Translations under genes and position numbers: made by a program | From: Alphaproteobacteria bacterium | GTDB taxonomy: Bacteria > Pseudomonadota > Alphaproteobacteria > Rs-D84 | Direction of reading: 5' to 3' | Length of the DNA stretch: 62,539 nucleotides | NCBI GenBank assembly: GCA_009782315.1 | Contig: WRJH01000001.1 | Coordinates: 1-62,539 of the forward strand | The notes under the pieces: model-generated | Databases searched by the model: none | What the model was told of the DNA's origin: nothing | The model's input: the letters and a program-made list of their open reading frames with translations, nothing else | Shown: piece after piece, positions 837 through 53,767 of the stretch | How the letters are laid out: each line of letters begins with the position of its first letter | How positions within the stretch are numbered: the stretch's first letter is position 1

Positions 837-1532
837 CTAGTTATTTCTTTGCTGTTCGGCCTGTTGCATGGCGTTCGCAACACGGCCCAATGTGGTCGCG
901 CAAGTCCGCACGGTATCGCGCAACGGGTTGAACGCTATGCCATCGCAAACTTTCAACGATGTCTTGTTGTCTTCGGTTGGACCGTGCCCAATAATCACAT
1001 CGTAATCTTTTTGCAATTGCCGGGCGGCGATACCGGGATTGGATTCTTGGGTTGCCTTTGTCGCATTGCGTTGTATGCATTGCATCGCTTCTGATTTATT
1101 CCACAGGCCGCTGCAATCGTCGGCGCCGGATATGCCGCCGCCGGATGCGGTGGTGGTGCCGGTGTTTTTATTTGCGGGCGCGGCGCCCGCGGCCTCCATC
1201 TGATTCATCAATGCGGCGCGGCGCAACTGCGTTTCAAGCCGCCGTACCGTCGCGTCCAGAAAATCATATTGCCGTTTCATCTGTTGCGCGACGATGGTGG
1301 ATTTCAGCCGCACGATTTCGTTCATCTGTTCGCGTTTGGCGCCGTCGCCCGGATTTACTGTCTCGCCGGCATTATATGCATGAACAGTGCACAGCACCAG
1401 GGCCGGGTGCACCACCTGGCTGACATCTTCCAGTTTATCAATATTGCATTCGTCGGATACTGTCTGCGCGAACGCGCCGCCTGCGCCCAGGCACATTGTT
1501 ATAATCGAAAAAGATAAAATCAATTTTTTCAT
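837..1532 (-). CDS. secreted hypothetical protein (231 aa)
   Basis: Signal peptide MKKLILSFSIITMCLGAGGAFA/Q. The start overlaps the stop of the upstream ORF as TAATG (1530-1534). Confidence 0.6.
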   Translation of the reverse strand: MKKLILSFSIITMCLGAGGAFAQTVSDECNIDKLEDVSQVVHPALVLCTVHAYNAGETVNPGDGAKREQMNEIVRLKSTIVAQQMKRQYDFLDATVRRLETQLRRAALMNQMEAAGAAPANKNTGTTTASGGGISGADDCSGLWNKSEAMQCIQRNATKATQESNPGIAARQLQKDYDVIIGHGPTEDNKTSLKVCDGIAFNPLRDTVRTCATTLGRVANAMQQAEQQRNN

Positions 1533-3325
1533 TATTCTTTTTTATTTAGAAATTCGTTCCAGGCCTTTTGAATTCCGTTGGTTTGTGGAGTGTATCCGAA
1601 ATTCATATTGTTTAAGTATGTTTCCTTTTGTGTTGGTGTAAGGTTTGGATCATTTTTTATGCTCTCTATTACTCTTGCTGATGCGCTATTGTCCAAAAGG
1701 TTGCTCCCCCCCGTGCTGTCGCCGGCCACACCAAGAATTCCCGGTATATTTCCTTCTTTGACACTGTCACGTCTGACGCACATTTTTGTCGGGACAAGTC
1801 TTGTCTCTTTCATGCGCTGCAAGGCGTCAACGAAACCCTGGGCGTTGCAGAAATTCATCGCCTCTTGCACGGATACCTGGTTGCGTGTTGTTGAACCCGT
1901 CGGCGTCGGTGCCGGCGCGTCTTGCATGACCATCATTTGCAAAACGCCGATGTCGATATTCGATTGTTTCCGCCGGCGGGCGCCAAGAAAGCCGGAATCT
2001 AAAGCCTCGGACGCGCAGGCGACCTGGATATTGGAACCGCCGGTTGTAGTATAACAATTGGTAAGGGTTACGCTGCCGTCCTGATTTCTGGTTTCTGTGC
2101 AAAAGCACCCCTCCGTGCCATTTTTGTCTGGTGTCGCGCATGGTTTCCTGTTGCTCTGTTGTTCCGGGTATATCCAGTTTTGTTGCACAGTTTGATTATC
2201 GGTCAGCATTTTCATCAGCTGGCAGCCGCCAAGGTTCTGTGGCAAAACCTTGCCATTCTGGGCTTGGTTTGGCGGACAGGGCGGATTATTGCCAGTGCCG
2301 CAGCCATTGCAGTTATTGCTGTCTGGAGTCAGTGAATTATTCCACACATTCGCCCCACAGGACGCATAACGAATATGCTGGCCCGGCGTACACAAGAACT
2401 GGCCCCAGACGTGGCACGAACCGTTCAGCATCATATAAATATCCGTAATGTCGACGCCCAGCGTCTGGGCCATTATCAGCGCGTCGTATATGCTGTCCAA
2501 AACCTCTTCGTACGGGTCAAAGAAATTGTTTGCCAACTGCCGAAAGCGCGCCGCGCGCCGCGGACCGGTGCAATCGTCGCCCCGCGGGCCACAGCCGGCG
2601 TATTGGAACGTTGCATCCATGCTGGCATTAACGCGGGCCATAGCCGAACGAACGTCGTCCAGTTTTGATTCTATCATGCCCATCGCCTGTTGGCGGACCA
2701 GTATGTCCGCGCTTATCCCGCTGGCCGCCGCAATCTGAACCGCAGAATCTGATATGGTGGCGGTCGGCGCCGGGGCGGCCGCTTGCTGTTTCTGTTCGGC
2801 CAGGGCTGCCTCCATCCGTCGGCTGGCCTCTTGCTGTTCGGTTAATGCCGCTTCCATTCTTCGGTCGGTTTCCTGTTGCGAACGCATCAATTCTTGCCGC
2901 ATTAATTCTATCTGTTGGGCCGCCGCGTCGTTCGCGGTATTGCCGGCGTCCGCCCGCGCGACAACCGTCGAATTAGCAACCATTTGCGCCGCAATAGACT
3001 GTACCAGCGCGTCGCCGTATGATTTGCAAGTTTCGTTCGCCATTACACAGCCGTTCACTATCCCGACCGCAACCTGCATATCCGAACAACGTCCGCCGGC
3101 GCATTTGGGCGCGGCGCAACGTTGAATCAGCGCGTCGCAATTTCCAAAGTTCGCCGCCGCCGGCGCGCCCGGCGCACTGCGCGGGTTTGTTGTGGCATTC
3201 CATTGTGCGTTATTCATCGCGCCGCCGCCATCGTTGAACGATGTCAGATTTTGGGCGCACACTGGCGCGTGCGCCAGAGCATAGAGCATAGAGCATAGAG
3301 CAAAGATGCGGGCAGGTGTTTTCAT
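1532..3325 (-). CDS. secreted Cys-rich / coiled-coil hypothetical protein (597 aa)
   Basis: Signal peptide MKTPARIFALCSMLYALAHAPVCA/Q. Central coiled coil with internal duplication RRMEAAL(T/A)EQ. Many Cys in the flanking regions. Confidence 0.6.
   Translation of the reverse strand: MKTPARIFALCSMLYALAHAPVCAQNLTSFNDGGGAMNNAQWNATTNPRSAPGAPAAANFGNCDALIQRCAAPKCAGGRCSDMQVAVGIVNGCVMANETCKSYGDALVQSIAAQMVANSTVVARADAGNTANDAAAQQIELMRQELMRSQQETDRRMEAALTEQQEASRRMEAALAEQKQQAAAPAPTATISDSAVQIAAASGISADILVRQQAMGMIESKLDDVRSAMARVNASMDATFQYAGCGPRGDDCTGPRRAARFRQLANNFFDPYEEVLDSIYDALIMAQTLGVDITDIYMMLNGSCHVWGQFLCTPGQHIRYASCGANVWNNSLTPDSNNCNGCGTGNNPPCPPNQAQNGKVLPQNLGGCQLMKMLTDNQTVQQNWIYPEQQSNRKPCATPDKNGTEGCFCTETRNQDGSVTLTNCYTTTGGSNIQVACASEALDSGFLGARRRKQSNIDIGVLQMMVMQDAPAPTPTGSTTRNQVSVQEAMNFCNAQGFVDALQRMKETRLVPTKMCVRRDSVKEGNIPGILGVAGDSTGGSNLLDNSASARVIESIKNDPNLTPTQKETYLNNMNFGYTPQTNGIQKAWNEFLNKKE
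3275..3305. repeat. one-armed heptamer array (AGAGCAT x about 4)
   Basis: CAGAGCATAGAGCATAGAGCATAGAGCAAAG. The antisense strand encodes ALCSMLYAL of the 597-aa signal peptide. Confidence 0.8.
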
Positions 3326-4633: not shown

Positions 4634-4650
4634 TACGCGGTTATTTTTTT
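4624..4650 (+). terminator. intrinsic terminator after lpxD
   Basis: AACCGCG-TAATA-CGCGGTT followed by ATTTTTTT. The lpxD stop codon lies in the loop. Confidence 0.6.
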
Positions 4651-5449
4651 ACGGACAGGCCGAAAGCAGATACATTACGTTCCGCACGTCGCGGTTTATG
4701 GATACAGTAACGGTGCGCTGCAGGCCGTCCTGGTATGCGAATGCAAACGGCTGGCTTTTGAATTCCGGCGCCGCCGCGTACATTTGCGCAAACGGTGCCA
4801 GCAGACTGTCGAACCAATCGCGCGATTTGCAAAGACACGTGTTGCGGACGTCCGCCATCATTTCCGCCGCGCGATAGTCGCGCGCGTTCGCATCCAAATC
4901 GGCGTCCGATATCATCAGGCATCTTTGTCCCATCATATTGAAATTCGCGTCGTCGAATACGGATTTGTATACCGCCGTGTCGCTGGCGCCTGCGCGTTTC
5001 ATTCTGTAACTCATTCCGTCGCGACAGCATGCGTGCGACGCCCGTATCAACAGCTTGTACCGGTCGATCAAAGGACGCGCCGCTGGAGTGTCGCCGTTTA
5101 TTTCCCAATCGGATGTTTCCGCCAGGCGAACAAGTTCTTCCAAACGTTCCGGCCGCAGGTTACGCGGATTGTTTCCGACGGTTTCCCGCACGTGCGGTTT
5201 GGAAAGCCATATTTCGCATTCGCCCGACGACAGATATTCCGGACAGTCGGCGGACGGTCCGATTTTTAGGCGTTCTTCGGGCAGATATTCCCAATGCGTC
5301 GGAAACGCCGCCATCAGTTCGTCGATGCTGGAAAATTTTTCCCATTCGTAAATGGCCGCGTTTGCAGGTATTGCGCAAACAAGGCATAAGGCATAAGGCA
5401 TAAGGCATATGAGTTTTGTTTTTGTTAAAAATTTTTCCCACATTCTCAT
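4649..5449 (-). CDS. secreted hypothetical protein (266 aa)
   Basis: Signal peptide MRMWEKFLTKTKLICLMPYALCLVCAIPANA/A. The h-region is encoded by the GCATAAG heptamer array. Confidence 0.55.
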   Translation of the reverse strand: MRMWEKFLTKTKLICLMPYALCLVCAIPANAAIYEWEKFSSIDELMAAFPTHWEYLPEERLKIGPSADCPEYLSSGECEIWLSKPHVRETVGNNPRNLRPERLEELVRLAETSDWEINGDTPAARPLIDRYKLLIRASHACCRDGMSYRMKRAGASDTAVYKSVFDDANFNMMGQRCLMISDADLDANARDYRAAEMMADVRNTCLCKSRDWFDSLLAPFAQMYAAAPEFKSQPFAFAYQDGLQRTVTVSINRDVRNVMYLLSACP

Positions 5450-5485
5450 AATTTTTATGCCTTATGCCCTATGACTTATGCCTTA
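5381..5485. repeat. inverted heptamer array (AAGGCAT x4 / ATGCCTT x4)
   Basis: Left arm 5381-5409 and right arm 5456-5485 are reverse complements with 2 mismatches. The spacer contains the start codon of the 4649-5449 ORF. Confidence 0.85.
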
Positions 5486-6329: not shown

Positions 6330-6992
6330 CTATTTCACCACCGGCGATATGCGGATTTCTATGCGCCGGTTCATTTGCCGGCCCGTCGTGCTTTGGTCGG
6401 AAATCGGGCGCGCGCTGCCGCGGCCTATGACGAACATGCGTATCGGCTTTACCCTGTGCTGGGCCATAAACAGCGCGACGCGTTCCGCCATGTCGAAACT
6501 GAACCGCGTCGCGGCGTTCTGGTCCAGCGACGCGTCGGAATATCCCGCGATTTCAATGAACGTCCGGTCGAATTTGAAAAGAACGCGCGAAAGCGCGCCC
6601 AAAGTTTCCGCGCCGATTTCCGAAATTTCCGCTTCGTCCCGCTCCATAAAGGCGTCGCGGATCATAACCACCAAAACGTCGCCGCCTATGCGCGTGATTT
6701 GTATTCCGGTTTTGCGCATGGTGTCGGAAAGCTCTTGTTCCAGCAACGCCATATACGCCGCGGTTTCGTTCGGTTGCAGCGTTTTATGCCCCGCGTCAAG
6801 GTACAGCGGTTTTTTAGCCATTTTCGCCGTTTCCGTCATGGCGCCGAAACTGGATCCTTTCAGAATAGTGTTCCAGGCGCCGCGTTCGGGCGTTTTATAT
6901 CCGCCGCAGGCGACAAGCATTACAGAGCATAGAGCATAGAGCATAGAGCATAGATATACGCGTTTGAAAAATTTATTTTTTAATATGGACAT
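6330..6992 (-). CDS. OmpA/MotB-domain lipoprotein
   Basis: Lipobox MLVA-C. C-terminal OmpA-like peptidoglycan-binding motifs: IAGYSDASLD...RFSFDMAERVA, GRQMNRRIEIRI. Confidence 0.7.
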   Translation of the reverse strand: MSILKNKFFKRVYLCSMLYALCSVMLVACGGYKTPERGAWNTILKGSSFGAMTETAKMAKKPLYLDAGHKTLQPNETAAYMALLEQELSDTMRKTGIQITRIGGDVLVVMIRDAFMERDEAEISEIGAETLGALSRVLFKFDRTFIEIAGYSDASLDQNAATRFSFDMAERVALFMAQHRVKPIRMFVIGRGSARPISDQSTTGRQMNRRIEIRISPVVK

Positions 6993-7035
6993 TTATATGC
7001 TCTCTATTACTTATGCTCTATTATCTATGCTCTGC
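6923..7035. repeat. inverted heptamer array (AGAGCAT family)
   Basis: Left arm CAGAGCATAGAGCATAGAGCATAGAGCATAGATA. Right arm TATATGCTCTCTATTACTTATGCTCTATTATCTATGCTCTG (imperfect). The spacer holds the start codon at 6992. Confidence 0.8.
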
Positions 7036-7050
7036 GCGCGTTGCGCGCAC

Positions 7051-7572
7051 TTATTCTACCAGAATAGCGACTTTGTTTTCCCGGTCGTTTTTGCAATTTT
7101 CGGCAGCCGGATCGGAAAACGAATCGTTTGTAATAACGTCCGCCGCCCAATCGAAATGCTGCGAAGACAGCCATGCGCAATCGGAAAAGTTAAGCCCGGA
7201 AAGAGTTATGAAAAATCCGTCGCCCAAAGGTTCCGGGGACAATTCCATGCGCGTCGCCATGCGCGGCGGCACATCCGTTTTCAACGCGCCCATTTTTACC
7301 ATATAATGCACGGAAATACCGTCGAATCCGTTTCGTCCCGCGAATAGTATCCGCGCGCCGCGCGCGATTTCGCGCAGCTCTTCGCCCGCCAGCATGCGCG
7401 ACTGGCGCGTCGACACGGTTTGGTATACTTGCAGCGTTATGGCGACCAGCACGCCGCCGATGGCCAGCGCGCCGATGGTTTCGATAAGCGACCGGCCGGA
7501 TTGGGAACTGAGAACTGAGAGCTGAGAGCTGAGAGCTGACCGACCAGTATTTTTATTAAAAAGTTTTTTCAT
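7051..7572 (-). CDS. prepilin-type N-terminal domain protein (type IV pilin/pseudopilin-like)
   Basis: Start at MKKLFNK (7572). G/RSLIETIGALAIGGVLVAITL resembles a class III signal, with Glu at +5 and a hydrophobic helix. The leader is unusually long and partly encoded by the GAGCTGA array. Confidence 0.5.
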   Translation of the reverse strand: MKKLFNKNTGRSALSSQLSVLSSQSGRSLIETIGALAIGGVLVAITLQVYQTVSTRQSRMLAGEELREIARGARILFAGRNGFDGISVHYMVKMGALKTDVPPRMATRMELSPEPLGDGFFITLSGLNFSDCAWLSSQHFDWAADVITNDSFSDPAAENCKNDRENKVAILVE

Positions 7573-7604
7573 GATTATCTCCATTGTGAAACCAGTTCTC
7601 AGTT
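7505..7604. repeat. heptamer array (GAACTGA/GAGCTGA x5) with short inverted partner
   Basis: 7505-7539 GAACTGAGAACTGAGAGCTGAGAGCTGAGAGCTGA. Partner CAGTTCTCAGTT at 7593-7604. The spacer holds the start codon at 7572. Confidence 0.7.
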
Positions 7605-9197
7605 TGTCCCTATTATTTCTGCGCCCGCGAACAGTTCCAGCGCGCCCGCGACCATCGGGTCGGATGCGGCGTCGTTTTTGGATTTTTCGGCAAGCGTGGG
7701 CGCGTTTTCGGATTCTTGAATTTGTTCCAGATTCCAATTTTTTCCGGTTGCGGTCAAAAGCCATTTGGAAAGTTTCGCCGCGAACGCCTTGTCGGCGCCG
7801 CGGTTAAAAAACTTTATGCGTCCGTCGCTAAATTCCGATACTTCGACATTATTGCTGAATTCCGAAAGCAGTATGGCCTCTTTGGCGGCGGTCAGCGCCG
7901 CGGTCAGGTCGGCCGCAGAATTAATCGTGGTCCGTAGCCCGTTATCCGTAGCCCGTGGAGATTCGGACATCGGCGCGGCGCAATCTGTTGTTTCTGGCGT
8001 TGGTTTTTCTTCCGTTGAATTACGGGTTACGGATGACGGACTGCGGACTGTGTTTTGGTTTTGCGAAATCAAAACGTCGACCGGAGGCATGTCCGCGATA
8101 TGCATCAGGCGCACCACCAGCATGTCGAAACACTGTTTTTGATTCGCGGATTTTTGCATTTCTTCGACCGACGCAACCATAACCTGCCACAGGCGCGACA
8201 ACGTGTTCAGCGTCACGCCGTCTATCGTCCCCAGAATCTGTTCCCGCTGGTCATGCGAAAAAGGCGAAGATGAAACGTCGCCCGCGCGCAGCGCCGGATG
8301 CATGCGCGTCGCCCAGTGCGTCCATTCCATCATGTCCGAAAGCAACAACGATAAATCCGCGCCGCTTTGATAAAGTTCGTCCGCCTTGGAAAGCGCCGCG
8401 CTTGTATCGCCCGACAGCAGAATTTTCATAAAGTCGACGACAACCCCGCGGTCCGCGCGTTTCAGCATGTTCAGCACGGCCGTTCTGTCGACGTTGCCGC
8501 CGGTTTGCGCGATAGCCTGGTCGAACAGCGAAAGGCCGTCGCGCACAGAGCCGTCCGCCGCGCGCGCCAAAAGTTCGTTCGCGTCGCCTTCAAGCGTTAC
8601 CTTTTCGCAGGAAGCAATCCATGCGAAATGTTTTTTCAAGACGTCGACCGGAACGCGGCATAAATCAAACCGCTGGCACCGCGAAAGTATAGTCACCGGG
8701 ACTTTTCTGATTTCCGTCGTGGCCAAGATGAATATGACGTGCGCGGGCGGCTCTTCCAATGTTTTAAGCAGCGCGTTGAACGCGCTGTTCGACAGCATGT
8801 GAACTTCGTCGATTATATAAACCTTGTACCGGCCGTTCGTCGGACGATACTGCGCCGCATCCATAATATCGCGCATATTGTCGACGCCCGTGTGCGACGC
8901 CGCGTCGATTTCCAAAACGTCTATATGCTGGCCCGCCGCAATAGCGTTGCAGTTTTCACAAGTGCCGCACGGCGCGGCCGTCGCCTTGGCCGACGATTGG
9001 CAATTCAAAGCTTTCGCAAGTATTCGCGCGGTCGATGTTTTTCCGGTGCCGCGGATTCCGGTGAATATATACGCGTGCGCTATGCGGTCCGTATTTATTG
9101 CGGTGGTCAGGGTCTTTACCAGAACATCCTGGCCGATAAGCGAATTGAAATCCTGGCTGCGGTATTTCCGCGCAAGCACGGTGTAATTTGCGGACAT
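7599..9197 (-). CDS. dnaX: DNA polymerase III subunit gamma/tau
   Basis: YRSQDFNSLIGQ, Walker A GIRGTGKTS, a Cys4 zinc module CGTCENC, DEVHMLS and a SRC sensor motif. Start set at MSANYTV (9197). Confidence 0.9.
   Translation of the reverse strand: MSANYTVLARKYRSQDFNSLIGQDVLVKTLTTAINTDRIAHAYIFTGIRGTGKTSTARILAKALNCQSSAKATAAPCGTCENCNAIAAGQHIDVLEIDAASHTGVDNMRDIMDAAQYRPTNGRYKVYIIDEVHMLSNSAFNALLKTLEEPPAHVIFILATTEIRKVPVTILSRCQRFDLCRVPVDVLKKHFAWIASCEKVTLEGDANELLARAADGSVRDGLSLFDQAIAQTGGNVDRTAVLNMLKRADRGVVVDFMKILLSGDTSAALSKADELYQSGADLSLLLSDMMEWTHWATRMHPALRAGDVSSSPFSHDQREQILGTIDGVTLNTLSRLWQVMVASVEEMQKSANQKQCFDMLVVRLMHIADMPPVDVLISQNQNTVRSPSSVTRNSTEEKPTPETTDCAAPMSESPRATDNGLRTTINSAADLTAALTAAKEAILLSEFSNNVEVSEFSDGRIKFFNRGADKAFAAKLSKWLLTATGKNWNLEQIQESENAPTLAEKSKNDAASDPMVAGALELFAGAEIIGTN
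7931..8050. repeat. inverted heptamer array (CCGTNNN family) inside dnaX coding sequence
   Basis: Left arm TCCGTAGCCCGTTATCCGTAGCCCGT. Right arm AATTACGGGTTACGGATGACGGACTGCGGACTG. Same unit type as 54692-54819. Spans about 120 nt and is translated as VRSPSSVTRNS...PRATDNGLRTT. Confidence 0.75.
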
Positions 9198-11906: not shown

Positions 11907-11972
11907 TCGTTAGTCGCTAGTCGATAGTCGTTAGAGAAGTCTTTTGACTGTTGACTATCGACTTTCGACTTA
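11907..11972. repeat. inverted heptamer array (AGTCNNN family)
   Basis: TCGTTAGTCGCTAGTCGATAGTCGTTAG / GACTGTTGACTATCGACTTTCGACTTA. Fills the virB9-virB10 spacer. Confidence 0.8.
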
Positions 11973-13472
11973 TTGCACCCTTACCACATGGCATGCGCCG
12001 GTTTGGAATTTCTGCAATTTGTCGCACAGCGTCTGGGCGTCGGTTATATTCGCGAACGGCCCGATGCGCAGACGGTAAAGGCGCGCGGTGTTTCCGGATT
12101 CGCCCAAATCGCCCACGCCCTGTTCGTCGACCGCAAAGAACACCATGTCTTTGTATGGCGCAAGCAGGCCCGCGCCGTCAGTGCCGCTGAACTGGGCCAG
12201 CAGTTTCGTCCAATGGTCGTTAAGCGCCTTTATCGACGGGTCGGATTTAAGTTCGACCGCAACGCCTGTCTGGTTACTGCGTATCAGGGGGATGTTGCTT
12301 TGCGGCAAGAATGCGCCCGCAGTATTGCGATTTTGCGGAACCATGTTCATGCCCTGGCCACCCTGTGCCGGCGCGCCGCCGAAACCGGGCTGTCCAGCTG
12401 GAACCATCATCGGTTGCGGTTGCTGCATCATCATGGGTTGACCCGGCATCATCATCGGCTGTCCGGTCGGACCAATCAAAGGCATTCCGCCGTATCCCAC
12501 GTTGTTGAACGACTGGGTAGAGAATATGCTTTGCGCGACGTTCGCTTCGGCCAATGACATCACCGACGCCGTGTCCGCAATCAGGAACGGTTTCGCGCGC
12601 TGTTTTATGCAGACTATGCGCTGGCCGCTGCGCAGGACCATGTCGCCCACCGCTTCGACAATCAACAGGCGACCGTGTTCGCCGTCCGTTCTGAATCCGA
12701 CCGGGCTTTCGCCCCCTTCGATTAATATCGACACAACCGGGCGCTGGGTCATCGCGATAACCTTGTCCCCGAAATCAATGTACGTGAATATCCGGTCGCG
12801 CCACACGCGTTCCGGCGCAATAACGTAATCGTCCGGATTCGGCACGAATATATCCAAATCAAACCGGAATTCGGACGGGTCGATTTTCATCGTTTTTATC
12901 CATCCGTAATCTTCGCCGTCCGGCGATGATACGCGGCCCCCCGCGGCGCCCCGGCCCGGGAATATGGAATTCATGCCGCCGCCCTGTGTAGTCGCGCCCG
13001 CGCCGCCCATGGGCAGCGAAGCGTTGTTGTCCAGAACGATGTCAACCATCGTGTATGTTATTTCCGACGCGTTGGCCGGTTCGCTGCGCAGATAAAACAG
13101 ATATATGTTTCCGGATTTGCCGGTGATGATAAGATTTGTGTCGGAACCCTGGTTTGTGGTTTCAGGCGTCAGCATGATTGTGCGACCGCCTTTTTGCGCG
13201 TCGAATACGAACAGGCCGGTGCTGCCGATAGTTCCGTCTTCAATGGCTTCACCCGCGGGCAGGTTAATCATCGTGACCATTCCGTTGCGAAGACGTATAG
13301 GCAGGACCGTGCCCGGACTCCACGTCAATTGGGCGAATCCGGGTCGCACGGAACCGGGCGCCATGTTGACATTCGGATTGTCCCACGCCTCTTGCACGCC
13401 CTGGGCGCGCGCGTTTTGCAGGAACGCAAAACAGAACATTGGGAATAGGGCATAGAGCATAAGTTTTTTCAT
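11970..13472 (-). CDS. virB9: VirB9/TrbG/CagX-family protein fused to a C-terminal SPOR domain
   Basis: Signal peptide MKKLMLYALFPMFCFAFLQNARA. VirB9-like N domain (PIRLRNGMVTMINLP...GKSGNIYLFYL). Met/Pro/Gln-rich linker. C-terminal LYRLRIGPFANITDAQTLCDKLQKFQTGACHVVRV matches the SPOR pattern. Confidence 0.7.
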   Translation of the reverse strand: MKKLMLYALFPMFCFAFLQNARAQGVQEAWDNPNVNMAPGSVRPGFAQLTWSPGTVLPIRLRNGMVTMINLPAGEAIEDGTIGSTGLFVFDAQKGGRTIMLTPETTNQGSDTNLIITGKSGNIYLFYLRSEPANASEITYTMVDIVLDNNASLPMGGAGATTQGGGMNSIFPGRGAAGGRVSSPDGEDYGWIKTMKIDPSEFRFDLDIFVPNPDDYVIAPERVWRDRIFTYIDFGDKVIAMTQRPVVSILIEGGESPVGFRTDGEHGRLLIVEAVGDMVLRSGQRIVCIKQRAKPFLIADTASVMSLAEANVAQSIFSTQSFNNVGYGGMPLIGPTGQPMMMPGQPMMMQQPQPMMVPAGQPGFGGAPAQGGQGMNMVPQNRNTAGAFLPQSNIPLIRSNQTGVAVELKSDPSIKALNDHWTKLLAQFSGTDGAGLLAPYKDMVFFAVDEQGVGDLGESGNTARLYRLRIGPFANITDAQTLCDKLQKFQTGACHVVRVQ

Positions 13473-13490: not shown

Positions 13491-14243
13491 CTAGTTCGCA
13501 CGATGGCGATCCAAAGGATCGCGCAGGCCGGGTCCCATGCGGTATTGATACACCAGTATGCCCAGCGGGTTTTCCAACCGGTCGGACCATTTTACCGACG
13601 GCTGAAATTTAATTCCTATGACGATTGTATAATCTTTTGACTCTTCATGTCCAGCATTATCGAAACAAAAATGACGAAACCGGACCAGGTGTTCCGAAGA
13701 CATCGTATCGTCGCCACCGTCCGCCGGACGGTACGGGTCAATGTTCCCGATAAATTCCACCCGGCATGTCGCGGGGAAGGTTTCGTTCGGGGCGGCCTCC
13801 ATAACCGCCAGCCACATTCCCGTCCGCGCGAATTCGGCGAAAACATCCGGCGCGGACCACAGACCCACCGGGCAGTCGCGCCGGCACCAGCGCGCATGCA
13901 TCGCGCTGATTTGCGGTATTATTTCGTTCCGCATGCGTATGTATTCCCGTATGAAATTTTCCTTGTAAATTTCGATGTTCGAATCCGTTACGGAAAACGA
14001 TTTCAAACGGATTTCGGTGTTCGACAACGGCTGTGACGTCAGAAAGAAAATCTGGGTTCTGTTCAGCGGCATAATGTTGGCCAAAGTCGCGACCAGAACG
14101 ACCGCCGTCGCAAGCGCGGCCGCAAAGACAAATGTCATGATTTTGGACATCAATGCCGGTGGTTCCACTGTTCGCATAATCTCTCTCTTGATTATACGGC
14201 ATATTAGACAAAAAATATAAGGCGGCGCAAGTGGTTTTTTCAA
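13491..14243 (-). CDS. virB8: VirB8-family type IV secretion protein
   Basis: Single TM (FVFAAALATAVVLVATLANI), then a periplasmic domain with IEIYKENFIREYIRMRNEI and the C-terminal ENPLGILVYQYR motif. The start is uncertain (alternative Met at 14177). Confidence 0.75.
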   Translation of the reverse strand: MKKPLAPPYIFCLICRIIKREIMRTVEPPALMSKIMTFVFAAALATAVVLVATLANIMPLNRTQIFFLTSQPLSNTEIRLKSFSVTDSNIEIYKENFIREYIRMRNEIIPQISAMHARWCRRDCPVGLWSAPDVFAEFARTGMWLAVMEAAPNETFPATCRVEFIGNIDPYRPADGGDDTMSSEHLVRFRHFCFDNAGHEESKDYTIVIGIKFQPSVKWSDRLENPLGILVYQYRMGPGLRDPLDRHRAN

Positions 14244-14346
14244 CTAACAACTAACAGCTAACAACTAACAGCTGGAAAAATAACAAAAATTATATGACTT
14301 GTGAGCGTAGTGAACGCAAAAGTTGTTAGTTGTTAGCTGTTAGTTG
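14241..14346. repeat. inverted heptamer array (CTAACAA/CTAACAG)
   Basis: CAACTAACAACTAACAGCTAACAACTAACAGC ... GTTGTTAGTTGTTAGCTGTTAGTTG, with a spacer of about 49 nt. Confidence 0.85.
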
Positions 14347-14474
14347 TTTTTTTACTTTACACGCCTATTATTAATGTTTTATACTACTTTCCACTTGATT
14401 TTTGGAAAATGTGTGGTACCGTGCGCGGGATTATAGCGGGGTGAAATGGTAAAATCACACAAAAACAAAGATTT

Positions 14475-14761: not shown

Positions 14762-15280
14762 ATGAACTGGTACATAGTCAATGTTCATACGGGTTGTGAA
14801 AACAAGGTTGCAAAAGAGCTGCGCGAGAAAATCGACGTCGCGAAGCTGAATCCTTTGTTCGGCGAAATACTGGTGCCCACGCGCGAAATAACCGAAATCA
14901 AAGCGGGAAAACGCGTCAAGACCGAAAAGAAGTTTTTCCCAGGCTATATCGTCGTCCAGATGACCATGACCGACGAAACGTTCAGCCTGGTGAAACTGCT
15001 GCCCCAGGTCGTCATGTTTCTGGGCCAAAAAAACAAACCGGTTCCGATTTCCGAAGTCGAGGCGCGACGTCTGATGAAACAGATGGAAGAAGGTCCCGCC
15101 ATGTCGGATGCGGAATACGAAGTCGGACAGGAAATACACATCATCGACGGGCCGTTCGCAAATTTCAACGGCATCGCGTCGGAGGTCGACAACCTGAAAC
15201 AAAAAATGACCGTCACGGTTCTGGTATTCGGACGTGAAACATCGGTCGGGCTGGATTTCAGCCAGGTGGAGAAAGTTTAG
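14762..15280 (+). CDS. nusG: transcription termination/antitermination factor NusG
   Basis: 172 aa. WY.V....G.E NGN domain, FPGYI.V motif, C-terminal KOW (GPFANFNGIASEVD). Confidence 0.9.
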   Translation: MNWYIVNVHTGCENKVAKELREKIDVAKLNPLFGEILVPTREITEIKAGKRVKTEKKFFPGYIVVQMTMTDETFSLVKLLPQVVMFLGQKNKPVPISEVEARRLMKQMEEGPAMSDAEYEVGQEIHIIDGPFANFNGIASEVDNLKQKMTVTVLVFGRETSVGLDFSQVEKV

Positions 15281-15305
15281 CAAATTTTGCAAAGCAAAAT
15301 TTGCA

Positions 15306-15445
15306 AGGCATAGGGCATAAGGCATATGGCATAATGTTCTATGTTTGAAGAATGTGGTAGATACGCCATATCGCACCACGTCGCAACAATAGCATAAGAA
15401 ATTTGGGTTCGGCTTTATGCCTTATGCCTTATGCCTTATGCCTTA
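15306..15445. repeat. inverted heptamer array (GCATARG family) in the nusG-rplK spacer
   Basis: AGGCATAGGGCATAAGGCATATGGCATA ... TTATGCCTTATGCCTTATGCCTTATGCCTTA, with a spacer of about 82 nt. Confidence 0.8.
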
Positions 15446-15462
15446 TACAACGGAGTTGTAAA

Positions 15463-15898: not shown

Positions 15899-16570
15899 AT
15901 GAAAGTTGCAAAAAGAATAAAAGCCTGGGAAACATTGGATACCGATAAAGTATATGCGCTGGCCGACGCCATCGAAACGTTGCGCGGATTCGCGTCGAAA
16001 AAATTCGACGAAACGTTGGAAATCGCCGTGCGTTTGGGCGTCGACGTCACAAAGGCCGACCAGAACATCCGCCTGATGCTGTCTTTGCCGAACGGCACCG
16101 GTAAATCTGCGCGCGTTGCGGTTATCACGGCCGACAAAGCCGACGAAGCCAAAAAAGCCGGCGCGGATGTTATCGGCGGCGAAGAATTGATTGAAAAAAT
16201 CGCCGGCGGATTTTTGGAATTCGACCGCGTTATCGCGTCGCCCGACATGATGCCGAAAATGGCAAAAGTCGCGCGTGTCCTGGGGCCTAAGGGAATCATG
16301 CCGAATCCGAAACTGGGCACCGTTACGAACAATATCGCGGACGCGGTGAAAATCGCCAAAGCGGGCCAGGTAGAATTACGTGCCGAAAAGAAAGGCATCG
16401 TCCATGCGGGCGCGGGCAAATTGTCTTTTGCGACCGCGAAACTGGTGGAAAATTGCGAAGCCGTCATCGACGCTTTGAAAAAAGCCAAACCGGCAAGCGC
16501 AAAGGGTCAATACATGCTGGGCATTTCCGTGTCGACGACACAGGGCCCGGGATTGAAAATAGGGATATAG
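15899..16570 (+). CDS. rplA: 50S ribosomal protein L1
   Basis: 223 aa with typical L1 motifs (FDETLEIAVRLGVD, LGPKGIMPNPKLGTVT). Follows rplK. Confidence 0.92.
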   Translation: MKVAKRIKAWETLDTDKVYALADAIETLRGFASKKFDETLEIAVRLGVDVTKADQNIRLMLSLPNGTGKSARVAVITADKADEAKKAGADVIGGEELIEKIAGGFLEFDRVIASPDMMPKMAKVARVLGPKGIMPNPKLGTVTNNIADAVKIAKAGQVELRAEKKGIVHAGAGKLSFATAKLVENCEAVIDALKKAKPASAKGQYMLGISVSTTQGPGLKIGI

Positions 16571-16645
16571 GTAATAGGTAATAGGTAATAGGTATAAGGT
16601 AAAATCGAACAAACCTTATACTTCATACCTTTTACCTTATACCTG
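16569..16645. repeat. inverted heptamer array (AGGTAWW family) immediately after the rplA stop
   Basis: AGGTAATAGGTAATAGGTAATAGGTATAAGGTAAAA ... ACCTTATACTTCATACCTTTTACCTTATACCT (imperfect pairing). Confidence 0.8.
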
Positions 16646-28330: not shown

Positions 28331-28430
28331 GATTTCGGATTTATGAATTCTGATTTCTGATTTGGTTTCGTATGGACGCGGTCTATACAAAGAAAACTTA
28401 AATCAGAATTCATAAATCCGAAATCATAAA
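28331..28430. repeat. inverted heptamer array (GATTTNN family)
   Basis: GATTTCGGATTTATGAATTCTGATTTCTGATTT ... AAATCAGAATTCATAAATCCGAAATCATAAA. Lies just upstream of the 28436 ORF. Confidence 0.8.
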
Positions 28431-29783: not shown

Positions 29784-30344
29784 ATGGATTACGCTTTATT
29801 AAAAGCCGAAGCGGAACAAAAAGGCAATGCAACAATCGAAGTCTTGAAAAAAGAATTCGCCGGTTTGCGCACCGGACGCGCTTCGGTAACCCTGCTTGAC
29901 GGCGTGCACGTCGAAGTATACGGCGCGGACATGCCGCTGAACCAAATCGCGACGGTATCAACACCCGAAGCCCAGGTTATATCCGTATCCGTTTGGGACG
30001 CGTCCAACGTCGCATCCGTCGAAAAAGCCATACGCGATTCCGGATTGGGACTGAACCCCATGACCGCGGGCGGCGTCATACGCCTTAACATGCCGCCGCT
30101 TACCGAAGAACGCCGCCGCGATTTGGTAAAGGTTGCAAAGAAATACGCAGAAGACGCGCACATCGCGCTGCGCAATGTTCGTCAGGATTTGATGAACAAA
30201 ATCAAAAAGGCCGAATCCGACAAAGAGATTTCCGAAGACGACCAGAAAAGATTTGGCGAAGATTTGCAGAAAGTGTTCGATGCAAAGGGATCTGACATCG
30301 ACGCCGCCGCGAAACAAAAAGAACAAGATATAATGTCTGTTTGA
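29784..30344 (+). CDS. frr: ribosome recycling factor
   Basis: 186 aa. Canonical RRF motifs: LRTGRAS..LLD.V.V.YYG, LTEERR..LVK. Confidence 0.92.
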   Translation: MDYALLKAEAEQKGNATIEVLKKEFAGLRTGRASVTLLDGVHVEVYGADMPLNQIATVSTPEAQVISVSVWDASNVASVEKAIRDSGLGLNPMTAGGVIRLNMPPLTEERRRDLVKVAKKYAEDAHIALRNVRQDLMNKIKKAESDKEISEDDQKRFGEDLQKVFDAKGSDIDAAAKQKEQDIMSV

Positions 30345-30362
30345 CGCAAGGCGTCAAACAGA

Positions 30363-30446
30363 CAGAGCATAGATAATAGAGCATAGATAATGTTTGGATT
30401 TTTAAGAAAGAAATCGCTAGCCACCAGCCACCAGCCACCAGCCACC
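30363..30446. repeat. two one-armed heptamer arrays flanking the uppS start (AGAGCAT/AGATAAT type, then AGCCACC x4)
   Basis: 30363-30390 CAGAGCATAGATAATAGAGCATAGATAA. 30419-30446 AGCCACCAGCCACCAGCCACCAGCCACC, translated as ATSHQPPAT in the UppS N-terminal extension. Confidence 0.75.
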
Positions 30447-35055: not shown

Positions 35056-35113
35056 AGTCGCAAATAGTCGGAAGTCGATAGTCTTAAGTCTATAGACTAT
35101 CGACTTTAGACTA
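35056..35113. repeat. inverted heptamer array (AGTCNNN family) between the portal gene and the next gene
   Basis: AGTCGCAAATAGTCGGAAGTCGATAGTCTTAAGTCTA / TAGACTATCGACTTTAGACTA, with no spacer. Confidence 0.8.
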
Positions 35114-36476
35114 ATAGTTCTTCCGGAATATGCAATGCCGTGCCCAGATAATTCATAACCGCAGTGTTGTCGATATTGGCGGCAAGTCCCACGCTGGATG
35201 CGGCAGAAAGGAACGTTAAAATCTGCGTCACGCGTTCGTCCGCGGCCAGGCGTGCAATCGGCGCGACATAGCAAAGCCGCGCGTCGGTATGCAGCGAAAT
35301 CGGGTCTATCGCGCCGCGCCGCGCCAATATGGCAAGGCCCCGTTCCACCATCGGCCGGATGAATTCGCACAAAAGGCGACCGTATGTCGCGCCCAAAACG
35401 CGCATCATGTCCGTGTTGCGCGCGATGATTTCCGTCGCGGTCATTTCCTTGTCGGATAAAATCGACAAACGGTCGGCAAGCAGCGCATGCCGAATCCGTG
35501 CGCGCAAATCGCCCAGGACCAGTTGCGACACGTCGAAATCCGCGCCGCTGCGCAGCGGCGTCAGGCCGGACGACCCGACGGCTTTTGGAATAATCGCGCC
35601 GGGGGTAAGGTTGATGTTGGACAGATTGATGACGCCGTCGTCGTCCGCCTGCCAGATTCCGGACACCGCGATGGTCGCGTTTTTCAACACCAGCTCTACG
35701 ACCTTGTTCGCGGTCTTTATATCGGGCAGGGCGCGCATGACCGGACTGCGCCCATAAGTTTCGCCCGTCGCCGCGGACCAGCGGAATATAATATACGGAT
35801 TGGTTTCAAATCGGCCCGTCTGCACAATATTGTTTTCCAATTCGCCGCCGCAATCTATCCATGCCGTGAATGCATAGCCTTCGGCGTCCGCCACAACGGA
35901 TTGCACCAGGCGCAGCGGCATTTCCGGGTTTTGTTTTATAGAATCACGAAGTGACGCCGGCGGCGTCCAGGCGGGATATTTTTCCATCATTTCCGCGGCG
36001 GGCATCGATGCGGTATGAAACACCGCGGTGATGTTGTCCGCGCCGTCGCGCAGTATGGATACGTCGTTCATCGGAATTGCGGTAAAAGAAAAAGCGCTTT
36101 TCGCGCCGATTGGATTTTCCGAAAAGAACAGACACGCTGTGCCGACGGTCGCCAAATCCAAATAGGATTGATGCACGGTCGTATAAAAATTGGAATTGTT
36201 CAGATGTCTGCGCAGATATTCCGTCGCATTGTCCGGGTCCGGCGAAAATTCAGTTTCGCGGGCCAGCGATATCCACAAAGATTCCGGCGGCGTAAGCAGG
36301 CTGAACATATTCGCGGCCAGCATGTCGACGGCGTCGCCCGCGGTTGAATCGAACAGTGCGGCCGTCTGGTCGTCCGGCGTTGGTATGGTATAGCGCCGGC
36401 AATCGGCCCAGCGGCGGGCAAAAGCGTCGCGTCCGGCCATTGATTGTTTATATAAAGATAAAAGCTTGGTATTCAT
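35106..36476 (-). CDS. phage portal (head-to-tail connector) protein, podovirus type
   Basis: 456 aa. Size, position next to the terminase fragment, and N-terminal L...Y......R..F..RW..C..Y..P pattern fit podoviral connector proteins. Confidence 0.65.
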   Translation of the reverse strand: MNTKLLSLYKQSMAGRDAFARRWADCRRYTIPTPDDQTAALFDSTAGDAVDMLAANMFSLLTPPESLWISLARETEFSPDPDNATEYLRRHLNNSNFYTTVHQSYLDLATVGTACLFFSENPIGAKSAFSFTAIPMNDVSILRDGADNITAVFHTASMPAAEMMEKYPAWTPPASLRDSIKQNPEMPLRLVQSVVADAEGYAFTAWIDCGGELENNIVQTGRFETNPYIIFRWSAATGETYGRSPVMRALPDIKTANKVVELVLKNATIAVSGIWQADDDGVINLSNINLTPGAIIPKAVGSSGLTPLRSGADFDVSQLVLGDLRARIRHALLADRLSILSDKEMTATEIIARNTDMMRVLGATYGRLLCEFIRPMVERGLAILARRGAIDPISLHTDARLCYVAPIARLAADERVTQILTFLSAASSVGLAANIDNTAVMNYLGTALHIPEELLV

Positions 36477-36533: not shown

Positions 36534-36661
36534 ATTACTCCCCCCTTGGGGGGCAGTCGACGGCAAAGCCGTCGGTGGGGGGATACATACATATGTATAT
36601 TATTGCCCCCCACCGAAAGACACTTTGTGTCTTTCGGCTCCCCCCGATGGGGGGAGCAATT
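36534..36661. repeat. R1 multi-hairpin element, copy A (intergenic)
   Basis: AATTACTC-C6TTG6-hairpin CGACGGCAAAGCCGTCG-G6[loop]C6-ACCGAAAGACACTTTGTGTCTTTCGG-CTC6GATG6AG-CAATT. Confidence 0.85.
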
Positions 36662-53746: not shown

Positions 53747-53767
53747 ATGGTTGCGCCTTTGGCGCAA

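Follow-up and report, generated by a model that had tools for sequence, protein, structure and literature searches.

The heptamer arrays at positions 6923-7035 of the window (the whole 62,539-nt stretch of DNA analysed here) would belong, as one copy, to a family of short palindromic elements found throughout the lineage of an uncultured gut alphaproteobacterium. The explanation that we consider best, and hold with moderate confidence, is that these elements are a dispersed palindromic repeat with arms built of heptamers, and that the arms have been recruited as coding sequence for export signals. At the locus of an OmpA-family lipoprotein the element consists of the following parts:

6330-6992, minus strand: OmpA-family lipoprotein gene (220 aa), with the lipobox LVAC at residues 26-29
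6924-6954, minus strand: distal arm, (ATGCTCT)x4.4 in gene sense, forming the h-region of the lipoprotein
6955-7001, minus strand: AT-rich centre of 47 nt, with the ATG at 6990-6992 and the n-region codons MSILKNKFFKRV
7002-7033, minus strand: proximal arm of degenerate AGAGCAT/AGATAAT/AAGTAAT units, 25/31 complementary to the distal arm
7035-7050, no strand assigned: perfect GC hairpin GCGCGCGTTGCGCGC, flanked by the proximal arm and by the stop codon of the pilin-like gene (7051-7053)

The distal arm is a flawless array (AGAGCAT x4.4 with 100% matches in TRF). Its minus-strand reading gives YLCSMLYALCS as residues 13-23, after which the LVAC lipobox follows in frame, and by inspection the lipoprotein signal reads MSILKNKFFKR / VYLCSMLYALCSVM / LVAC. 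The first-pass annotation had stated that the lipoprotein has no usable signal peptide unless the repeat is translated, and this was borne out, as no other h-region precedes the lipobox. It had also listed five proteins with a repeat-encoded h-region. Four of them (OmpA and the 266-, 297- and 597-aa proteins) stand, while VirB9 retains only two to three decayed units. The genes and arrays concerned, together with a pilin-like gene that had been missed, are:

4649-5449, minus strand: gene of a 266-aa exported protein, with its ATG at 5449 in the spacer
5381-5409, minus strand: distal arm of the 266-aa gene, (ATGCCTT)x4, translated as ICLMPYALCLV
5455-5485, minus strand: proximal arm of the 266-aa gene, AAGGCAT family, whose first unit provides the TAA stop of skp/ompH
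53796-54689, plus strand: gene of a 297-aa exported protein, with a GTG start at 53796
53769-53795, plus strand: proximal arm of the 297-aa gene, AGAGCAT AGATAAT AGAGCAT AGATAA, with a perfect hairpin (53750-53768) before it
53841-53871, plus strand: distal arm of the 297-aa gene, (TCTATGC)x4.4, translated as SMLYALCSML
1532-3325, minus strand: gene of a 597-aa exported protein, a single-armed case
3276-3306, minus strand: single arm of the 597-aa gene, with no upstream partner, translated as FALCSMLYAL
11970-13472, minus strand: VirB9/CagX gene, with an array remnant in its signal peptide
13442-13463, minus strand: the VirB9/CagX remnant, two to three decayed ATGCTCT-like units read as LMLYALF, a weak example
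7051-7573, minus strand: pilin-like gene with an array-encoded leader peptide
7505-7539, minus strand: distal arm of the pilin-like gene, (CTCTCAG)x5, inside the leader peptide (…GRSALSALSSQFSVPNPAGRSLIE…)
7592-7612, minus strand: weak proximal arm of the pilin-like gene, CTGAGAA units, containing the TGA stop of dnaX

A Sec or lipoprotein signal layout, defined as a positive n-region, an h-region of 10-20 residues and an AxA site or a lipobox of the form [LVI][ASTVI][GAS]C, was found by inspection in the OmpA, 266-, 297- and 597-aa proteins. The last three signals read …TKTK / LICLMPYALCLVCAIP / ANA-A, …KSFGR / LSMLYALCSMLCVCA / ANA-D and MKTPAR / IFALCSMLYALA / HAPVCA-Q, respectively. Altogether, arrays encode the h-regions of 14 exported proteins whose mature parts show no mutual similarity, and several of these proteins have in common an n-region of the type ILKNxF. 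The OmpA lipoprotein and the 297-aa protein are 62% identical, but only within their first 29 residues. At the DNA level, the centre at 6955-7001 is homologous to the centre of the element at 53769-53871, and the arm at 53769-53795 is identical to 30361-30391 over about 30 nt. A further perfect hairpin (53869-53893) follows the distal arm of the 297-aa gene, within the codons of the c-region (CVCAANA). That different heptamers encode n- and h-regions of unrelated exported proteins agrees with the earlier proposal that a selfish or structural repeat was repeatedly exapted into export signals, and the sequence comparisons support such an exaptation of a dispersed palindromic repeat.

The coding properties of the arms suggest how this could have come about. 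The outward-reading arm is rich in pyrimidines and, since seven is not a multiple of three, gives the same cyclic heptapeptide in every frame. The heptapeptides of ATGCTCT (MLYALCS) and ATGCCTT (MPYALCL) are stop-free and hydrophobic. Genes of exported proteins lying directly downstream would have acquired start codons within the AT-rich centre, which would provide a Lys-rich n-region ('ILKNxF…K'); outward translation through the arm would then yield the h-region, and the cleavage site or lipobox would come after the arm. The comparison of orthologues speaks for the arm being translated, and we infer that the upstream start is the one used.

The arrays could instead be non-coding 5' leaders, with the proteins starting at or past them. 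The ATGCTCT and ATGCCTT arrays are stop-free and offer an ATG in every frame, and for two genes (P0001 and P0034) one gene caller chose an ATG within the array itself, which shows that software does not settle on one start site. We nevertheless regard such an annotation artefact as very improbable. A start inside the array would leave no charged n-region and a start past it no h-region before the lipobox or AxA site, and the upstream frame, the K/R-rich n-regions and the in-frame character of indels are kept in many orthologues with different heptamers. The alignment of orthologues that had been suggested as a check gave a clear result for OmpA: the layout is kept, the arm is read with different heptamers and both arms remain complementary. 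In every array-bearing OmpA orthologue the frame stays open from the upstream ATG to an in-frame lipobox, across both the K/R-rich n-region and the arm, and the window differs from relative L119 by an in-frame indel of 9 nt. In the 297-aa family, about 15 closer homologues have signal peptides with a 7-aa period and about 100 distant ones have ordinary signal peptides, a further point in favour of the repeat having been recruited.

The arrays are not confined to export signals. The window contains 21 period-7 runs, whereas 30 Markov shuffles gave 0-1 per shuffle (mean about 0.1), which excludes a chance origin; only 0-2 runs were found for periods 4-6 and 8-12. Array lengths cluster tightly at 23-35 bp with a median of 31 bp (about 4.4 units). 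At least nine heptamer families are present, with units including AGAGCAT, AAGGCAT, AGTCGAA, CAACTAA, AATAGGT and GATTTCT, none of which has a G3 tract. Most arrays form inverted pairs, of which the window has 15; their arms are 71-93% complementary and stand 0-82 nt apart. The remaining arrays and pairs of the window are:

30364-30391, plus strand: upstream arm of uppS, AGAGCAT-type, ending at the uppS ATG and preceded by a 13-bp perfect hairpin at 30334-30364
30419-30446, plus strand: uppS array, (AGCCACC)x4, translated in a 25-residue N-terminal extension of UppS
45305-45335, plus strand: RecG array, AGAGCAT/AGAGCAA, in frame as QSIEQRAKSID and preceded by a perfect hairpin at 45280-45304
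11907-11971, minus strand: AGTCGAA-family pair with a short loop, from the virB9 TAA stop to 10 nt before the virB10 ATG
14241-14348, no strand assigned: CAACTAA/TTAGTTG pair, 27/28 complementary, with one variant unit mirrored in the other arm
15303-15446, plus strand: AAGGCAT/ATGCCTT pair at the nusG-rplK junction, preceded by a perfect hairpin at 15280-15304
16558-16644, plus strand: AATAGGT/ACCTTAT pair overlapping the rplA stop codon
17674-17733, plus strand: AGTCGAA/TTCGACT pair, 2 nt past the rplL stop and about 245 nt before rpoB
28331-28425, no strand assigned: GATTTCT/AGAAATC pair, 30/33 complementary, with mirrored irregular units
35064-35113, minus strand: loopless AGTC-family pair that overlaps the stop of a phage portal-like gene
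52319-52394, plus strand: AGGTAAT/ATACCTT pair with GC hairpins on both sides, 8 nt past the stop of a small lipoprotein ORF
54687-54815, plus strand: GTTATCC/GGATAAC pair, beginning at the stop codon of the 297-aa gene and followed by a terminator-like hairpin at 54821-54844
57549-57656, minus strand: AGTC/AGTA-family pair that separates two phage-like genes and overlaps the stop codon of the upstream one
60194-60249, minus strand: AGTC-family pair with no loop, 4 nt past the stop of a phage capsid gene

The in-frame arrays at the N-terminus of UppS and in RecG are cases that the first-pass annotation had missed. The array at 30419-30446 is not complementary to the upstream arm at 30364-30391. 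An insertion into RecG was considered and rejected, as the array aligns to a variable linker and brings no net gain in length relative to E. coli RecG.

Eleven of the 15 pairs do not overlap a signal or leader peptide. In each of the 14 pairs between co-directional genes, the distance from the upstream stop codon to the arm, or to the hairpin abutting that arm, is 0-8 nt; among them are the rplL-rpoB and virB9-virB10 junctions and those of the phage genes. Convergent gene junctions in the window carry no array pair. One of the two pairs that are not between co-directional genes (14241-14348) precedes the virB8 promoter region in a divergent arrangement with a tRNA gene, and the pair at 28331-28425 is flanked by mraZ (minus strand) and a 115-aa ORF (plus strand); the gene downstream of the pair at 52319-52394 starts at 52419. 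The arrays are thus not signal-peptide devices as such, their anchor being the stop codon of the upstream gene, and the data support a class of repeat whose existence does not depend on export signals. A role as intrinsic terminators was rejected because the pairs lack a T-run and are never convergent, and canonical terminators made of a hairpin plus T-run occur elsewhere.

The centre of AGAGCAT-type copies is AT-rich, and one of their arms often adjoins a perfect GC hairpin; some copies within one genome share near-identical stretches. Across all families, the flanking hairpins were not a significant component of the pairs (Mann-Whitney p = 0.42); the association was significant only for hairpins after translated arms (p = 6e-4). 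At gathering thresholds, an Rfam scan of the window returned five tRNAs and no match at the arrays. A database search with the module peptide found only 26 ORFs, short and spurious. More than 114 metagenome contigs from many habitats contain (AGAGCAT)x3; this is a bare count, not a measure of enrichment of that unit.

Comparison with relatives revealed that the heptamer at a given junction changes. The pilin-to-ompA junction carries AGAGCAT in the window, AGAGCAC/GTGCTCT in L119, AAGTAGT/ACTACTT in L120 and AAGGCAT in L126. At the virB9-to-virB10 junction AGTCGAA (window) corresponds to GTGGCTG (L119) and TTTGAAG (L124), and at rplL-to-rpoB AGTCGAA (window) to TAGTAGT (L124). The 597-aa array has an orthologous counterpart in L119 with TGTGCCT-type units. 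A relative at a similar distance (L122) is essentially array-free in 20 kb, so the elements are dispensable and any hairpin function is non-essential. In an LpxD-based scan of the genome collection, the one genome returned, the distant Rickettsiales MAG L002, had zero arrays. The elements would behave as dispersed DNA-level repeats: at a given junction the family turns over between relatives, and inside each copy the arms keep their complementarity.

The earlier annotation had placed both the ribosome-binding site and the start codon in the spacer and assumed that pairing of the arms presents the initiation region in a loop. The start codons do lie between the arms in the OmpA, 266- and 297-aa genes. 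In the 266-aa gene the ATG at 5449 is 5 nt past the arm at 5455-5485, and the GTG at 53796 directly adjoins the last proximal-arm unit of its element. The ribosome-binding site, on the other hand, was misplaced. The spacers of these three genes contain no canonical Shine-Dalgarno (SD) sequence, and the only SD-like purine motif (GAGAG, AAGG or AGAG) is found within the last unit of the upstream arm; for OmpA this is the GAGAG in the last unit of 7002-7033, the only such purines upstream of its ATG. In the pilin-like gene, GGAG and the ATG (7571-7573) are both in the spacer between the arms. The loop was not supported either: minimum-free-energy folds pair the SD-like purines within the stem, along with the GUG of the 297-aa gene. 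With the initiation region buried in the predicted stem, pairing would be more likely to repress than to promote initiation.

These folds bear on the possibility that a hairpin for translational control or coupling is the primary function and the coding use of the arm secondary. The start region is enclosed by stems with predicted energies of -28 to -47 kcal/mol (self-complementarity z = -3.2 to -7.1), and the SD-like purines belong to the final unit of the upstream arm. As this arm begins at the upstream stop codon, the stem would be partly melted by a ribosome terminating there. We still consider this function unlikely to be primary. Most pairs enclose no start codon, the rplA-rplJ and rplL-rpoB pairs are 170-245 nt before the next start, and where a start region is enclosed, it is buried in the stem and not displayed in a loop. 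Single-armed translated arrays, found in the 597-aa protein and in relatives L121, L123 and L124, indicate that arm pairing is not required for the coding use. Over the 15 pairs the two strands did not differ in fold energy (-38.4 vs -38.6 kcal/mol), nor were G-U pairs enriched on the sense strand (24 vs 29). Equal folding of both strands and the lack of a G-U bias make the complementarity look like a DNA-level palindrome; it gives no evidence of selection for an RNA structure. Within the preferred explanation, a repeat with secondarily recruited arms, a hairpin could nonetheless have effects. In a polycistronic mRNA the arms would form a hairpin of 25-30 bp beside the upstream stop codon, which may serve as a processing or stability element and may keep the weak SD hidden as long as neither a helicase nor a terminating ribosome has opened the hairpin.

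Tandem heptamers in leader codons also raise the possibility of contingency loci, in which slippage would switch exported proteins on and off. The arrays are in the 5' coding region of envelope proteins (the OmpA-like lipoprotein, the pilin-like protein, VirB9 and secreted proteins of unknown function), and the unit lies inside the leader codons with a length that is not a multiple of three. The precedent is the opa genes of Neisseria, where CTCTT repeats form leader-peptide codons of an outer-membrane protein, encode hydrophobic residues, are present in many copies and are hypervariable, with about 1e-3 switches per cell per generation (PMC3960869). The likeness to opa extends to the short tandem unit, its length and the hydrophobic leader codons. 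Here, in contrast, the arrays have about four units with a narrow length distribution, and the element is palindromic and also found in non-coding DNA and next to housekeeping genes, whereas the opa repeats have no inverted partner. Three assemblies of the strain from different samples had identical unit counts, and other near-identical contig pairs showed no copy-number differences. Phase-variable switching is therefore improbable.

Slightly less probable still are heptad operators, in which each family would be bound by a cognate repressor of the ribbon-helix-helix or a similar type through 4+4 heptads flanking a promoter. The omega protein of pSM19035 binds heptads and ParR binds parC, and the 7-bp periodicity and 4+4 symmetry fit this idea. 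In the AGTC family a core of 4-5 nt is conserved, with the remaining positions variable and non-complementary between the arms, a pattern that fits protein recognition better than simple base pairing. Promoter-like hexamers are seen in some spacers, e.g. TATAAT in 14274-14320. On the other side, there is no single conserved heptad: at least nine unrelated heptamers in 62 kb, and more in relatives, would call for as many regulators, and relatives do not keep the family found at a given junction. In the pairs 14241/14321 and 28331/28398 the irregular units have exact mirror images in the opposite arm, which speaks for true palindromes rather than for recognition unit by unit. Furthermore, the pairs hug upstream stop codons rather than promoters, and a Pfam scan of 20 window proteins linked no small DNA-binding protein to the arrays.

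The repeat that we favour resembles several known systems in part. Rickettsia palindromic elements (RPEs) and PARCELs are dispersed palindromic repeats tolerated in frame within protein-coding genes; RPEs are about 100 bp long, belong to an alphaproteobacterial lineage, have arms that are not heptamer arrays and insert into protein bodies. The likeness is one of description and lies in the in-frame palindromes of about 100 bp, and we know of no RPE that supplies a start codon or signal peptide. REP, BIME and REPIN sequences and Correia-type MITEs are abundant, co-transcribed intergenic palindromes between co-directional genes. They have been proposed as mRNA-stability or RNase III processing sites, and REPs near stop codons affect translation of the upstream gene. 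The arms in the window differ from REPs and REPINs in being internally periodic and in comprising many sequence families under one architecture. Inspection of all arms revealed no GTAG or CGTC tag and no shared tetranucleotide; the ends of AGAGCAT-type arms read CAGAGCAT…ATGCTCTG and those of other families differ.

The closest parallel in architecture is with the GGGAATC arrays of Xanthomonas (and GGGGAYT of Nostoc), which have four units, form inverted pairs between aligned ORFs, are mostly transcribed, occur scattered around the chromosome and are far nearer to the preceding stop codon than to the following start (Rehm et al. 2015, PMC4692102). Both systems have about four tandem units in convergent inverted pairs, intergenic and stop-proximal between co-directional genes. 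The Xanthomonas arrays consist of a single G-rich heptamer, whereas here there are many families, none G-rich, and a use in signal-peptide coding was not reported in that study. The preference for four units was explained there by G-quadruplex formation (PMC4692102), which cannot apply to the non-G-rich units found here. In Beggiatoaceae and cyanobacteria, direct repeats of TAACTGA occur as 2-6 units immediately upstream of start codons; read forward they give stops in three frames, and in reverse they are occasionally translated at protein termini (MacGregor 2015, PMC4679880). Those arrays differ from ours in being direct repeats of one heptamer, for which only one inverted case is described, and in having no role in signal peptides.

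As to the origin of the copies, no transposase or RAYT was detected among the 20 window proteins scanned with Pfam and no IS element was found. Inverted arms are present, and by eye the element borders showed no consistent target-site duplication. A possible GGTCG duplication surrounds the array in the pilin leader. Mobility is therefore inferred only from the turnover and the shared stretches. A stronger reading, possible but rather doubtful, is that the AGAGCAT and AAGGCAT elements are self-propagating export-signal cassettes. If so, either strand would encode a start codon, an ILKNxF n-region and a frame-independent h-region, often with the cleavage site encoded by the hairpin after the arm. 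Landing past a stop codon would give the next gene a new or replacement signal peptide, and pairing of the arms would make expression of this leader depend on the upstream gene being translated. Proteins could in this way be re-targeted to the envelope throughout a clade of gut Alphaproteobacteria.

The evolution of signal peptides is usually ascribed to point mutation within each gene. On the explanation favoured here, a dispersed repeat would supply n- and h-regions to many unrelated exported proteins, with the unit swappable and the architecture kept, and this would offer a concrete route by which repeat DNA can create or replace targeting signals. As the Xanthomonas-type architecture recurs with non-G-rich units, the G-quadruplex explanation is unlikely to be general. 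Because gene callers place the starts inconsistently, two of them inside an array, exported proteins of this lineage will be mis-annotated.

The window has a GC content of 51.7% and is a chromosomal segment of an uncultured alphaproteobacterium carrying rplKAJL-rpoBC, dnaB, recG, frr-uppS, lpxD-skp, virB8-10 and T7-like prophage remnants. Among the collections, the nearest syntenic relative is GCA_009783855.1 (L119), a MAG of termite-gut type. Altogether 21 period-7 runs were found, against 0–1 in 30 Markov shuffles and 0–2 for each of the remaining periods between 4 and 12; the heptamer arms described in the first-pass annotation as hydrophobic cores (h-regions) of signal peptides are thus real. 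TRF and our own scan distinguished at least nine heptamer families (AGAGCAT, AAGGCAT, CTGAGAG, AGTCGAA-like, CAACTAA, AATAGGT, GATTTCT, GTTATCC and AGCCACC). Almost all arrays are 23–35 bp long, and 15 inverted pairs are present with spacers of 0–82 nt. The elements at the starts of exported proteins are the following:

6924-6954, AGAGCAT arm of the OmpA element, 4.4 perfect copies
7002-7033, degenerate inverted copy of this arm, 25/31 complementary
6990-6992, minus strand, ATG start of the 220-aa OmpA-family ORF (Pfam OmpA), inside the 47-nt spacer
5381-5409 and 5455-5485, arms of the 266-aa protein element, ATG at 5449 within the spacer
53769-53795 and 53841-53871, arms of the 297-aa protein element, GTG start at 53796
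3276-3306, single arm of the 597-aa protein, partner arm absent

For three of the proteins the start codon had been proposed to lie in the spacer between the arms, and this holds for the OmpA, 266-aa and 297-aa layouts. The ribosome-binding site placed there was not recovered, as the spacers lack a canonical Shine-Dalgarno (SD) sequence. VirB9/CagX is a weak example, as its leader holds only 2–3 decayed units.

In the minus-strand OmpA ORF the 6924-6954 arm gives YLCSMLYALCS, and the lipobox LVAC follows in the same frame. A similar peptide is encoded on the other strand, owing to the palindromic nature of the element (mirror ORF at 6964, LKNLFF…YALLSML). Comparison with relatives' orthologues supports an array-encoded h-region: in all array-bearing OmpA orthologues an open frame is kept that begins at an upstream ATG, crosses a K/R-rich n-region and the arm, and reaches a lipobox in the same frame, with the array peptides SMLYALCS, SVLYALCSV, CYLLLTT, LMPFALC, ALCLVPC, LIPYSLF and CLLFTVCC. 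The window and L119 ompA spacers differ by an in-frame 9-nt indel. A start inside the array loses the charged n-region, and a start after it loses the h-region. The arrays might instead be non-coding and the starts misplaced, as one gene caller placed the start at an ATG within the array although the DNA was identical (P0001/L125; also P0034), indicating that the annotation of these starts is unstable. However, a pure annotation artefact is unlikely, given that the open frame to the lipobox is kept despite differing heptamers. On these comparisons, translation of the arm in these proteins appears well supported but not proven.

Identity between OmpA and the 297-aa protein reaches 62% in the first 29 residues, and further on the two are unrelated; their elements are homologous through the spacer too (TTAAAAAATAA(A/T)TTT). 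The same module, consisting of M-x-x-[IL]-K-[NR]-x-F…K/R and then (S)MLYALCS or a different array-encoded peptide, occurs on proteins of 169–635 aa in relatives' contigs, and the mature parts of 14 module-bearing proteins have no mutual similarity. Within the 297-aa family, signal peptides of the ordinary non-periodic sort are found in approximately 100 more distant homologues, and 7-aa-periodic leaders of various heptamers in some 15 closer ones. As periodic leaders are confined to these closer homologues, the array type is derived within the clade. The idea of repeated exaptation of the repeat into export signals is therefore supported by the 14 unrelated proteins and the derived state in the 297-aa family, a reading that orthologue and paralogue-free comparisons favour.

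AGAGCAT-family consensus, in order
Part 1, perfect GC hairpin
Part 2, CAG-AGCAT AGAGCAT AG(T/A)TAAT AGAGCAT AGATAA
Part 3, ATG…TTAAAAAATAATTTT…
Parts 4-5, (TCTATGC)x4 then TCTG; then perfect hairpin

The second hairpin of this consensus sits in c-region codons. After translated arms, 9/20 cases fold at ≤ −10 kcal/mol versus 17% of background windows (Mann-Whitney p = 6e-4). We also observed perfect GC-rich hairpins, each unique in sequence, that begin 0–4 nt from a translated arm and lie within c-region, cleavage-site or lipobox codons (window 53869-53893, 3255-3275 and 5355-5380; other loci, L016 5060-5095, L018, L097 5835-5870 and L126 ~750-775).

Arrays are translated elsewhere as well. The leader-peptide codons of the pilin-like gene next to ompA (7051-7573, minus strand) include a (CTCTCAG)x5 arm, ahead of a GRSLIE motif; at the equivalent site L120 carries a CTCACGC/CTTACGC array, and L119, L121, L122 and L124 have none. 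In RecG (45280-45335), a mutated AGAGCAT/AGAGCAA array lies in frame (QSIEQRAKSID; …KLHQSIEQRAKSIDDFF…), preceded by a perfect 10-bp hairpin that is also in frame; stop-creating units are mutated, and the segment aligns with the variable linker of E. coli RecG with zero net insertion. UppS carries a 25-residue N-terminal extension before the Prenyltransf domain (30390-30446), encoded by the element centre and an (AGCCACC)x4 array without complementarity to the upstream AGAGCAT arm, and this element looks like a hybrid of two different heptamers. Arrays are thus tolerated where protein sequence is weakly constrained; immediately downstream of an intergenic element, a region of this sort is most often a cleavable leader.

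The arrays are not specific for signal peptides. Fourteen pairs lie between co-directional genes, and in all 14 the element, either its first arm or a perfect GC hairpin directly adjoining that arm, begins 0–8 nt from the upstream stop codon, which is often supplied by the arm itself. The junctions are skp->266-aa gene, dnaX->pilin-like, pilin-like->ompA, virB9->virB10, nusG->rplK, rplA->rplJ, rplL->rpoB, frr->uppS, 218-aa->297-aa gene, 297-aa gene->next gene, small lipoprotein ORF->gene at 52419, and three between phage-like genes. None of these pairs is placed between convergent genes, and ordinary terminators consisting of a hairpin and a T-run are present at other sites. In the long rplA-rplJ and rplL-rpoB intergenic regions the pair stays beside the stop codon of the preceding gene and away from the start of the next. 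Irregular units are mirrored exactly at 14241/14321 (27/28 complementary) and 28331/28398 (30/33). The T7-like phage genes (portal/head-tail connector, terminase RNaseH-like fragment, Phage_capsid_2; 35106-36476, 39789-40724 and 57653-61066) are scattered in at least two blocks with host genes between, and AGTC-family heptamer hairpins lie between phage genes.

At orthologous junctions, relatives carry pairs of different heptamers, with arm complementarity kept within each copy.

Heptamers at orthologous junctions
pilin-like->ompA: window AGAGCAT/ATGCTCT; L119 AGAGCAC/GTGCTCT; L120 AAGTAGT/ACTACTT; L126 AAGGCAT/ATGCCTT; L127 ATGCCTT/GTGCCTT
virB9->virB10: window AGTCGAA; L119 GTGGCTG; L124 TTTGAAG
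rplL->rpoB: window AGTCGAA; L124 TAGTAGT
dnaX->pilin-like: window CTGAGAG; L120 GCGTAAG; L121 CAGTATT; L119 AACTAAC; L126 AAGAGCT

L122, a relative at similar distance, is essentially array-free over 20 kb, its OmpA leader holding decayed remnants only. Together with the swapped heptamers, this indicates elements that are long-lived as a class, fast-changing in sequence and dispensable. Binding of the arrays as heptad operators by RHH-type repressors would fit the conserved AGTC core and the non-complementary spacer positions, but is disfavoured by the many heptamer families and their turnover at fixed junctions. Phase variation by heptamer slippage, as for Neisseria opa with CTCTT repeats in its leader-peptide codons (PMC3960869), is likewise disfavoured: unit number is low and uniform, copy numbers are identical in three assemblies, and many arrays adjoin housekeeping genes.

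Several observations were made in other contigs. In L121 (2915-3130) and L123 (1-95), a different MITE-like palindromic element of ~200 bp (GGGTTTTCCTGCCCCCGGTTTCGGGGGCGGGA … mirrored) sits upstream of ompA, where the ompA array has no upstream arm. A 4.4-unit TCTATGC/AGAGCAT array lies within the annotated YidC coding region of L119 (18358-18388), ~52–62 codons from the start. In L055 (9335-9380) an AAGTAGG array decays into perfect SD heptamers (AGGAGGT x4) and is paired with a CCTACTT/CCTACCT arm, so that the two arms resemble SD and anti-SD sequences. A scan with AGAGCAT as the sole heptamer placed (AGAGCAT)x3 in more than 114 metagenome contigs (L005-L118) from soils, sediments, waters and guts (GC 33–68%), many of which abound in arrays of other heptamers, with lengths of up to 235 bp in some.

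Minimum free energies of the four start-region elements range from −28.5 to −46.9 kcal/mol (z-scores −3.2 to −7.1). It had been suggested that pairing presents the initiation region in a loop; on the contrary, the predicted folds place the SD-like purines, and likewise the GUG of the 297-aa gene, inside the stem, where pairing would mask initiation. The details of the proposed translational control are doubtful. Across the 15 pairs there is no strand bias in mean fold energy (sense −38.4 versus antisense −38.6 kcal/mol) or in G-U pairs (24 versus 29). As the abutting hairpins are also perfect Watson-Crick palindromes, arm complementarity seems to be maintained at the DNA level, possibly by copying, gene conversion or template switching. 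A 25–30 bp stem starting at the stop codon would be a plausible RNase III or stability element, or could act as a coupling device opened by the terminating ribosome. RNase III is classically known to act at the rplL-rpoB junction and in T7-type intergenic regions.

Other repeats in the window include a 45-bp block in which two perfect hairpins lie side by side (CCGAAAGACAC…GTGTCTTTCGG and GCTCCCCCCGATGGGGGGAGC), whose inverted copies (36613-36657 / 40359-40403) flank a 3.7-kb segment that encodes a 994-aa exported protein together with a terminase-like fragment. Comparable G8/C8 hairpins are found at the window start (15-85) and at 40455-40474. This could represent a repeat family of its own, or a segment able to invert or move. 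Adjoining the phage capsid gene is a long tandem repeat (61356-61789; period 15/30/60) in which a GCCGGTTTTTTCACG-like unit recurs ~28 times; its minus strand would encode a repeat protein rich in Lys, Ala, Pro and Val. At 40790-42716, an RloB-like protein beside an AAA_21 (AbiEii/OLD-like ATPase) protein, adjoining a tRNA gene, is likely a defence gene pair.

Among the long simple-sequence repeats of bacteria, heptamers are the most common type (Mrazek 2007, cited in PMC4679880). The Xanthomonas GGGAATC arrays of Rehm et al. (PMC4692102) share the architecture of the window arrays: they are 89–93% intergenic, between aligned ORFs and mostly transcribed, at a mean of 28 nt from the upstream ORF versus 160 nt to the downstream one. 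Their four-unit preference was attributed by the authors to G-quadruplex formation, an account inapplicable to the window units. MacGregor (PMC4679880) described TAACTGA direct repeats just 5' of start codons, with stops in all frames one way and occasional translation the other way. In our literature search, no description emerged of heptamer-armed palindromes that provide start codons and signal peptides. The feature belongs to a known kind, dispersed heptamer-array palindromes, and export signals common to unrelated proteins are an unusual, well-documented consequence of these arrays.
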